Assembly (NCBI GenBank): GCA_964496765.1
Contig: CAZCAP010000010.1
Span: forward strand, 1-29,710
DNA: 29,710 bases
Reading direction: 5' to 3'
Source of the DNA: an uncultured archaeon
GTDB lineage: Archaea; Iainarchaeota; Iainarchaeia; Iainarchaeales; CSSED10-239
Part shown: in pieces, positions 7,103 through 7,174 of the stretch
Position numbering within the stretch: position 1 is the first letter of the stretch
Layout of the letters: each line of letters begins with the position of its first letter
Notes under the pieces: model-generated
What the model was told of the DNA's origin: nothing
Seen by the model: only the letters and a program-made list of their open reading frames with translations
Databases searched by the model: none
Program-made: the position numbers and the translations under genes

Positions 7103-7174
7103 ACACAGATCACCACATATATTATAGAAATTGTGGTGTATATCCCTTTCGGGGGGGTACGTGTCCAAGCAAAA
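7103..7174 (-). repeat. Junction/leader element copy B
   Basis: TTTTGCTTGGACACGTACCCCCCCGAAAGGGATATACACCACAATTTCTATAATATATGTGGTGATCTGTGT-ATG. Confidence 0.92.

Follow-up and report, generated by a model that had tools for sequence, protein, structure and literature searches.

Among the described systems closest to the element reported here is the DNA-damage-responsive element (DDRE) of Sulfolobales, a promoter-proximal element of DNA-damage-responsive genes that is bound by the non-initiator Orc1-2 protein, itself self-regulating. It is found 23-55 bp ahead of the ATG in genes most of which are leaderless, and in Sulfolobus its motif reads ANTTTC, as part of AATAGTTTCRGWDTACTCWS (PMC6061795). 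As a rule, Orc1/Cdc6 proteins bind elements adjacent to the gene that encodes them, and the haloarchaeal origin recognition boxes (ORBs) end in a G-string (PMC4010727). Bacteria also have damage regulons independent of LexA that are run by activators, such as PafBC, DriD and the Moraxellaceae activator, and in Moraxellaceae, as outlined in these sources, damage and anti-phage genes are under one activator (PMC6789036, PMC12340889, PMC12392091). The element described here is a repeated unit found in a stretch of 29,710 nucleotides (the window, contig CAZCAP010000010.1 of GCA_964496765.1) from an uncultured archaeon of the Iainarchaeota (DPANN), whose genome is available as a 738-kb assembly of 26 contigs with 29% G+C and 86% completeness. 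We give a probability of about 60% to the reading that this unit is an archaeal promoter module defining a regulon, with a conserved 5' box as the putative site of one regulator.

Copy B, the reference copy, spans 7100..7172 on the minus strand, beginning in the 5' flank of the box and ending with the ATG of a DUF1016 gene. The first-pass annotation had divided it in three parts, and their locations hold: a 5' box, TTGCTTGGACACGTACCC, at 7172..7155, the stretch CCCC-GAAA-GGGATATA at 7154..7139, and a potential hairpin in which CACCACA (7138..7132) is followed after 14 nt by TGTGGTG (7117..7111), overlapping the Shine-Dalgarno (SD) motif GGTGA at 7114..7110. TATAATATAT at 7126..7117 does start 24 nt ahead of the ATG (7102..7100). 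The first part can be subdivided into TTGCTT (7172..7167), a genus-specific 5' extension, and the box core GGACACGTACCC (7166..7155), an imperfect dyad with the family consensus GGMCA-NN-TACCC. The C-run plus GAAA (CCCCGAAA, CCCC-GAAA, 7154..7147) is conserved along with the box and is read as similar to a transcription factor B recognition element (BRE), while GGGATATA (7146..7139) is the proposed TATA box, hereafter TATA1. Next come CACCACA, which would form the 5' arm of the anti-SD hairpin but is not conserved in its pairing, then ATTTC (7131..7127), the AT block TATAATATAT, probably the AT-rich stretch that is melted immediately ahead of the start site, GTGGTGA (7116..7110), within which transcription is predicted to start, the GGTGA placed 7 nt before the ATG, and TCTGTGT (7109..7103). 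Hereafter, copies are located by their 5' coordinate and strand, and GG+n counts from the first G of the box.

The copy-B element is a real repeated unit. There are seven copies in the window, with 5' coordinates 6074, 7172, 8405, 9356, 11050 and, degenerate, near 12168 on the minus strand and 19591 on the plus strand. The box pattern gave six matches there, against 0.01 expected by chance, and 18 in the whole assembly, against none for a reversed control pattern; when the matches were read by eye the real copies in the genome amounted to about 19. They all point at the downstream gene with the exception of one orphan copy (C6:6416, minus strand), located just 3' of an endonuclease III-like gene and facing a convergent gene, with no co-oriented open reading frame (ORF) behind it. 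The unit itself is not coding, since the extended TTG ORFs differ in frame between copies and the length of the C-run varies by 1-3 nt.

The sister genome, the only other one of the genus, has 17 copies with the exact pattern and 23 model matches, and the exact pattern was absent from 39 further genomes scanned. A sequence-only covariance model built from 33 copies (R1) detected diverged copies in 19 of the 22 genomes of the family, belonging to four of its five genera. A second, family-wide model was applied to 11 genomes of the family and to 109 genomes from 31 other families of the order; it found the motif in eight of the former and gave two single weak matches among the latter. In its family-wide form the motif is essentially confined to one family within the order. 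Scans with the exact pattern added 46 distinct copies from metagenomes and none from viral contigs. Over 75 copies the conserved sequence is G1 G2 M C4 A5 N S T8 A9 C10 C11 C12, then four pyrimidines (mostly C) and NAAA, with GG, C4, A5, A9 and CCC invariant or nearly so and GAAA beginning at position 17, 17 nt after GG, in 46 of them. The central dinucleotide of the box is free (GC 40, CG 10, GG 6, AC 6, CC 5, others), and the 6-10 nt ahead of GG vary by genus (TTGCTT/ATGCTT, TTTGCTAA, (T)CGCACT, TTTCTC). Thus described, the 21-nt block formed by GGMCA-NN-TACCC, the C-run and GAAA(A) is conserved in sequence, orientation and distance to the start codon, both at the ~19 sites counted here and across most of the family's genomes, and copies from one genus are closely alike over 70-80 nt, first codons included.

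Downstream of the 21-nt block two versions of the unit can be distinguished. Those of type I, the version seen in this genus and in many copies outside it, have G(G/A)ATATA behind GAAA, and in this genus both GGATATA and the AT block are at fixed positions relative to the box. Type II copies occur in a sister genus (g4) and read CCCGAAAA-YRM-CCCC-N2-TTTnWAA; in them TTTnWAA is shifted ~10 nt downstream of the usual TATA position, and the distance from box to start codon is the same as in type I. At the type II loci (L049, L061, L064, L072, L077 and others) TACCCCC occurs twice, 16 nt apart. An AT-only block at GG+41..+48 (TATAATATAT in copy B) is the one strictly positioned AT block in all genera, and upstream of the box there is no AT block or TATA-like signal at a fixed distance.

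The archaeal core promoter features an AT-rich TATA box of ~8 bp centred ~26-27 bp upstream of the transcription start. In the 125 genes of this genome that have no SD, counting from the first ATG, TTTAWAA occupies -30..-24 and position -1 is T, and the TATA-like words peak 30 nt ahead of that ATG, therefore leaderless mRNAs are the norm. The start codons headed by the box are located at GG+53, or at GG+62-68 behind GGTGA, a motif that occurs in most copies. Many box-headed genes of both types, such as the DUF1016 gene at C5:5867 and those of several metagenome copies, have their sole possible ATG 51-53 nt after GG, abutting the AT block. The start site must then be at or before GG+53 and, because of this, the AT block cannot be the TATA box. 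GGATATA is 30 nt upstream of the ATG in the GG+53 copies, which is the genome's own TATA-to-ATG spacing, and (C)GAAA(A/G) sits 0-2 nt ahead of it in nearly all type I copies, as a purine-rich BRE directly 5' of the TATA box that would set the direction of transcription. Canonical TATA boxes occupy the TATA1 position in copy F (TTTAAATA) and in the Hef copy of the sister genome (GAAACC-TATTTATT, with TATTTATT as the TATA). This geometry points to GAAA plus GGATATA as the BRE/TATA pair, with transcription predicted to start ~30 nt past GGATATA, just after TATAATATAT (~7114-7116 in copy B), and to produce mRNAs that would be leaderless when the ATG is at GG+53 or would have a 12-16-nt leader beginning at GGTGA. 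The first-pass annotation had hesitated between a DNA-level BRE/TATA-like motif and an RNA hairpin for the second part of the unit; the former is supported, and so is its view of the whole unit as a promoter with a short leader.

The genes behind the box were compared by pooling 79 genome copies and the 46 metagenome copies, and the latter head the same gene families as the former. RadA is found behind the box in at least 11 genomes from three genera. Of 19 radA loci from Iainarchaeota, 10-13 have the box or a recognisable variant 5' of the gene, some of them in other families (e.g. GGAAATCTACTCTTCCAAAG-TATTTATAAA), as against none of ~60 loci from Thermococci, Archaeoglobi, Thermoplasmata and Methanosarcinales. 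This persistence 5' of radA, a case of phylogenetic footprinting, favours a function of the box at a core gene. Other repair and replication genes behind it code for RadC, XPD-like and Hef-like helicases, RPA, the PolD large subunit, a PolB-exonuclease-like protein, a PDDEXK_1/Cas4-like nuclease and a CcrM-like methylase. The remainder includes a true DinD equivalog (358 bits, cut-off 242), Bro-N (~16), ORF6N/AlbA_2 (~19), DUF1016 (9) and RhuM (4) proteins, small antitoxin-like proteins and the conserved unknowns CL4, CL5 and CL6. The unit had been proposed to be a portable device for the expression of acquired genes of bacterial type. As stated this does not stand, since the unit also heads core genes (radA, XPD, Hef, RPA, the PolD large subunit and RadC) at conserved positions across genera. 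The set reads as one of DNA repair and recombination genes together with defence-type DNA-binding proteins, and we call it SOS-like by analogy only. As with the LexA box at recA and dinD in the bacterial SOS, one short operator-like word marks a recombinase, a DinD-type protein and repair genes, although here the promoter context is archaeal and the motif is unrelated.

Two members of this set have additional features. The radA leader contains a perfect hairpin (CCAGAAGTTA-ACC-TAACTTCTTGG) and, after it, the sequence GAATTGTGAGGCGAGAAACACAAGAAATAAAACG, itself conserved between genera (L012, G000 C3:40082-43098, locus ~1560-1668; also L109, L111 and L120); this may be a leader RNA element. CL4 (G000 C4:15269-16735, 488 aa) is found behind the box in three genera, with homologs at L063, L065, L040 and L106, and has no match in Pfam, NCBIfam or PDB; it is weakly colinear with the PolB (family B DNA polymerase) of the genome, with DTD replaced by DNN, and may be an inactivated PolB-like protein.

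In the mechanism that we propose, the box would lie at about -51..-40, its centre ~45 bp 5' of the start, abutting the BRE, to which the C-run forms the bridge, and would be the docking site of one sequence-specific regulator that switches the whole gene set together, in a response to DNA damage or foreign DNA analogous to SOS. Archaeal activators usually bind just upstream of the BRE, where the box lies, and upstream activating sites are known at this position, e.g. those of Ptr2 in Methanocaldococcus and TFB-RF1 in Pyrococcus. The resemblance to these extends to a site immediately 5' of the BRE/TATA and to a suboptimal TATA/BRE. Unlike them, which serve single operons or small sets and have other motifs, the box is a 21-nt block at ~19 promoters of a 0.74-Mb genome. 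Of the two roles that the first-pass annotation had left for the 5' box, recombination site or regulator-binding site, the latter is supported. That the regulator would be an activator is a less certain step, weakly hinted at by the suboptimal TATA of the box-bearing copies versus the canonical one of copy F, which has lost the box.

Regarding which protein might bind it, the genome encodes one TFB and one TBP, making an alternative general factor unlikely as the reader of the box. Regulators of the WYL or LexA type were discarded as well: neither a WYL protein nor an S24/LexA-type peptidase (PF00717, positive in the control genomes) was found in the 86%-complete genome, a difference also from the LexA-based SOS. 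The box-headed CL5 (100 aa) was considered as an autoregulated winged-helix factor and rejected, given that it has only a weak resemblance to the RPA32 winged-helix domain (E = 0.08). Orc1/Cdc6 is encoded by two genes, both of which pass TIGR02928. The one on contig C2 is the likely initiator, because it has the classic TCCAGTGGA word upstream and the better family score. On the same contig (G000 C2:18069-18741, L189) there is a direct duplication of ~670 nt comprising the first 69 codons of the canonical orc1/cdc6 and its upstream region, ORB-like word TCCAGTGGA included. The second gene (C8:32243-33346) starts ~100 bp from a divergent box copy that drives the 58-aa CL6 gene. This paralog has orthologs in all 22 genomes of the family; in eight of them the strict pattern detects a box in divergent orientation 57-192 nt away from the start of the gene, and variant boxes are visible beside it in four or five more, the arrangement spanning four genera.

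The regulator may thus be this non-initiator Orc1/Cdc6 paralog, head-to-head with one box copy, a further step that is less certain than the preceding ones; binding of the box by the paralog, which would imply an independent recruitment, is possible, though we hold the odds to be somewhat against it. The parallel with DDRE and Orc1-2 lies in a non-initiator paralog that shares its intergenic region with a copy of the element. However, ANTTTC was not recovered: whichever strand is read, the conserved block is CCCTTTCGG or TCTTTTCGG and its position 1 is not a conserved A; only the TACYC part is alike, maybe by chance. In a rough comparison the paralog appears to fall outside the Orc1-2 (ORC2) clade and nearer to the Orc1-1 type. 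The gene set also differs, with RadA, RadC, XPD, RPA and many Bro-N, ORF6N and DUF1016 genes and no genes for pili or DNA exchange, and both binding and damage induction are, in our case, predictions. Similarly, ORBs are asymmetric sites of ~20 bp beside the gene of the cognate Orc1/Cdc6, and the box is a dyad-like word plus a C-run, but its copies are dispersed at promoters instead of clustered around an AT-rich unwinding region, and the classic TCCAGTGGA word sits upstream of the other Orc gene. In its most complete form the proposal would be that Iainarchaeota run an SOS-like response in which an Orc1/Cdc6 paralog, independent of the Sulfolobales Orc1-2 clade, binds the 21-nt box and co-activates RadA, RadC, XPD, Hef, RPA, the PolB-like protein, Bro-N/DinD, ORF6N, DUF1016/YhcG and RhuM; we consider this combination doubtful and put it forward only tentatively.

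Several observations weigh against the interpretation as a promoter with a dedicated regulator. The TATA matrix of the genome scores the downstream AT block above GGATATA in most copies, and no AT element other than this block is invariant in position. Type II copies have no TATA beside GAAAA and are left unexplained by the promoter assignment. The box is only an imperfect dyad (GGRYA-NN-TRYCC), with three of the five half-site positions symmetric in most copies. The Orc paralog lacks an adjacent box in ~9-10 of the 22 genomes and is closer to structures of the Orc1-1 type than to ORC2/Orc1-2 (2qby_A, Orc1-1, 4e-40, versus 1w5s, ORC2, 2e-10, again a rough comparison). Finally, the regulator is a candidate that we only infer, and a DNA-damage response is read from gene content alone.

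The alternative that survives best, although unlikely, retains the promoter and dispenses with the regulator: the box would be an extended core-promoter element, part of a strong constitutive promoter read by TFB, TBP and RNA polymerase, and the unit would have spread by duplication among fast-evolving genes, a history that we rate no higher. The fixed geometry and the highly conserved AT block suit such a promoter, the similarity of copies within a genus over 70-80 nt, first codons included, fits recent duplication or gene conversion, and the regulator is still a candidate. Nevertheless, the typical promoters of the genome have nothing box-like, and the box marks only ~19 of ~700 genes, a thematically coherent fraction. 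It has also been kept 5' of the single-copy radA across genera while the flanks diverge, and copy F, having lost it, has gained a canonical TATA.

Another proposal is that the unit acts as RNA, a transcribed leader in which box and hairpins would control translation by SD sequestration or would bind an RNA-binding factor, for which we see a low probability. It was the suggestion of the first-pass annotation for the third part, and the 7-bp stem between CACCACA and the SD region is certainly strong (-8.5 kcal/mol, z about -3 to -4) where it is complete, that is, in 3 of 33 copies (B, C and one from the sister genome); in the others it shrinks to CACC/GGTG or disappears. When the GNRA hairpin and this stem were imposed on the 33-copy alignment, 52.1% of the cells were paired versus 51.3% in shuffles, 159 of 500 of which paired as highly as the real alignment. 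Covariation for the proposed hairpins was not above controls in these copies (0.142 versus 0.137), and whole-unit folds were no better than those of shuffled sequence (z from -0.8 to +2.1), so that a conserved translation control is not supported. The weakening of the GNRA stem in some copies had been correctly noticed and is general, as most copies of the sister genome read CCCGAAAAGAATATA, from which it cannot form. Searches against Rfam, at the gathering threshold and at E <= 1, assigned no family to the elements; the sole match in this search was Yfr10 at 7217-7282 (E = 0.69, chance level), overlapping the GC hairpin CTCGCACCATTGGTGCGAG. Given pairing, covariation and folds at control level and no Rfam match, we take the conserved features to act as DNA. 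A leader would gain from the GGTGA present in most copies and from the chance that transcription starts upstream of the box, but there is no TATA-like signal at a fixed distance 5' of the box and the upstream genes end 17-24 nt before it; with the predicted start downstream of CACCACA, the 5' arm of the anti-SD stem would be left untranscribed.

The other role foreseen for the box, a recombination or cassette-junction site used in an integron-like manner for the insertion and exchange of gene cassettes, turned out to be the weaker one, and we find it similarly improbable. Archaeal integrons exist, and the window does look like an array of single-gene units with a copy at the head of each, in which, as in attC arrays, a repeated element separates units whose content differs between close relatives. 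Comparison with the sister genome showed that units have been shuffled, gained or lost and that the breakpoints fall at the elements. Missing there are the RhuM unit, flanked on both sides by ATGATGCTTGG, and units D and C, and another unit is present instead. Furthermore, 804 nt coding for a Bud32-like kinase (G000 C7:14477-15280) have been inserted between the box promoter and the XPD-like helicase, where the sister genome (L020) has 40 nt. However, no recombinase was found on the window contig, the only Phage_integrase-family gene of the assembly being on contig C2. There is no IntI, no R/L box symmetry, no attC-like inverted-repeat architecture and no above-chance fold, whereas the box is at a fixed distance from TATA and start codon, in promoter geometry, and in several genera it stands, at conserved positions, ahead of single-copy core genes. 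Homologous recombination between 70-nt repeats also gives such breakpoints. Since no recombinase is nearby and the box heads core genes at fixed positions, we attribute the shuffling to homologous exchange between repeated promoters; it would be, like the near-identical long flanks, a by-product of duplication and exchange.

We regard as highly unlikely, finally, a reading in which the AT block TATAATATAT acts as the TATA box itself, either for the gene, with transcription starting past the annotated ATG, or for an antisense RNA transcribed divergently, with the reverse complement of the box at its 5' end. In its favour are the matrix scores and invariant position of the block, and a reverse complement of the box that is loosely tRNA D-arm-like, with GTGGCCAAGCAT common to copy E and tRNA-Gln. 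However, the block is separated by only 13-22 nt from ATGs lacking any in-frame alternative start, is abutted by the ATG in many copies (GG+51..53), so that a start 30 nt on would miss conserved N-termini, and has a BRE-like purine run on neither side. ARAGORN and Rfam find no tRNA-like gene there, and the likeness, 12 nt that copy E shares with the tRNA-Gln D-arm and nothing more, was judged coincidental.

With the promoter module as the preferred reading, the genes that the unit heads in the window can be listed as follows. On the minus strand, copy A (6004..6074) heads a Bro-N gene (5158-6006), copy B a gene coding for a DUF1016_N plus YhcG_C nuclease (6077-7102), copy C (8333..8405) another of the same kind (7271-8335), and copy D (9282..9356) a gene for a fusion of ORF6N with HATPase_c_4 and a winged helix (8418-9284). 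Copy E (10980..11050) lies ~180 nt 5' of a helix-turn-helix gene (10252-10869) and a weakly AbiEii-like gene (9513-10274). Copy F (12095..12168) heads a RhuM gene (11078-12097), and its box is degenerate (GGTCACGAGGTT) yet its BRE/TATA is canonical (GAAAGC-TTTAAATA). On the plus strand, copy G (19591..19659) heads an ORF6N gene with a GTG start (19657-20553). Outside the window, in the same genome, the unit precedes RadA, with a leader of ~100-110 nt, the Bud32-like kinase followed by the XPD-like helicase, an AlbA_2-type protein, further Bro-N, DUF1016 and ORF6N genes, and CL4, CL5 and CL6, three conserved proteins of unknown function. Gene D contains three to four tandem 12-nt repeats (TTTTCTCCGAAC, 8588-8635) that encode SEKSSEKSSEK. 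The GC hairpin CTCGCACCATTGGTGCGAG is located between A/T runs (7243-7266), 3' of the DUF1016 gene of copy C, and is terminator-like on both strands; a near-identical one (CTCGCACCATTGATGCGAG) adjoins a box copy in another genus (L107).

The regulation of DNA repair in archaea is little known beyond Sulfolobales and haloarchaea, and our literature search on the regulation of repair genes in DPANN archaea found nothing. The present data suggest a so far undescribed SOS-like gene set in this group. Here a cis-element links radA to ~20 other promoters in a 0.74-Mb genome, providing a ready-made regulon that is testable without culture. If the Orc1/Cdc6 candidate is the right one, this would be a second, apparently independent case of a paralog of this family linked to such a regulon. 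The box also gives a functional lead for Bro-N/DinD, ORF6N, DUF1016/YhcG and RhuM, four families that are very common but of unknown function and tend to be mentioned only as passengers of restriction-modification and defence islands; here they are predicted to share a switch with the recombinase. If the SOS-like reading is true, these defence-island families would take part in a response to DNA damage or foreign DNA.

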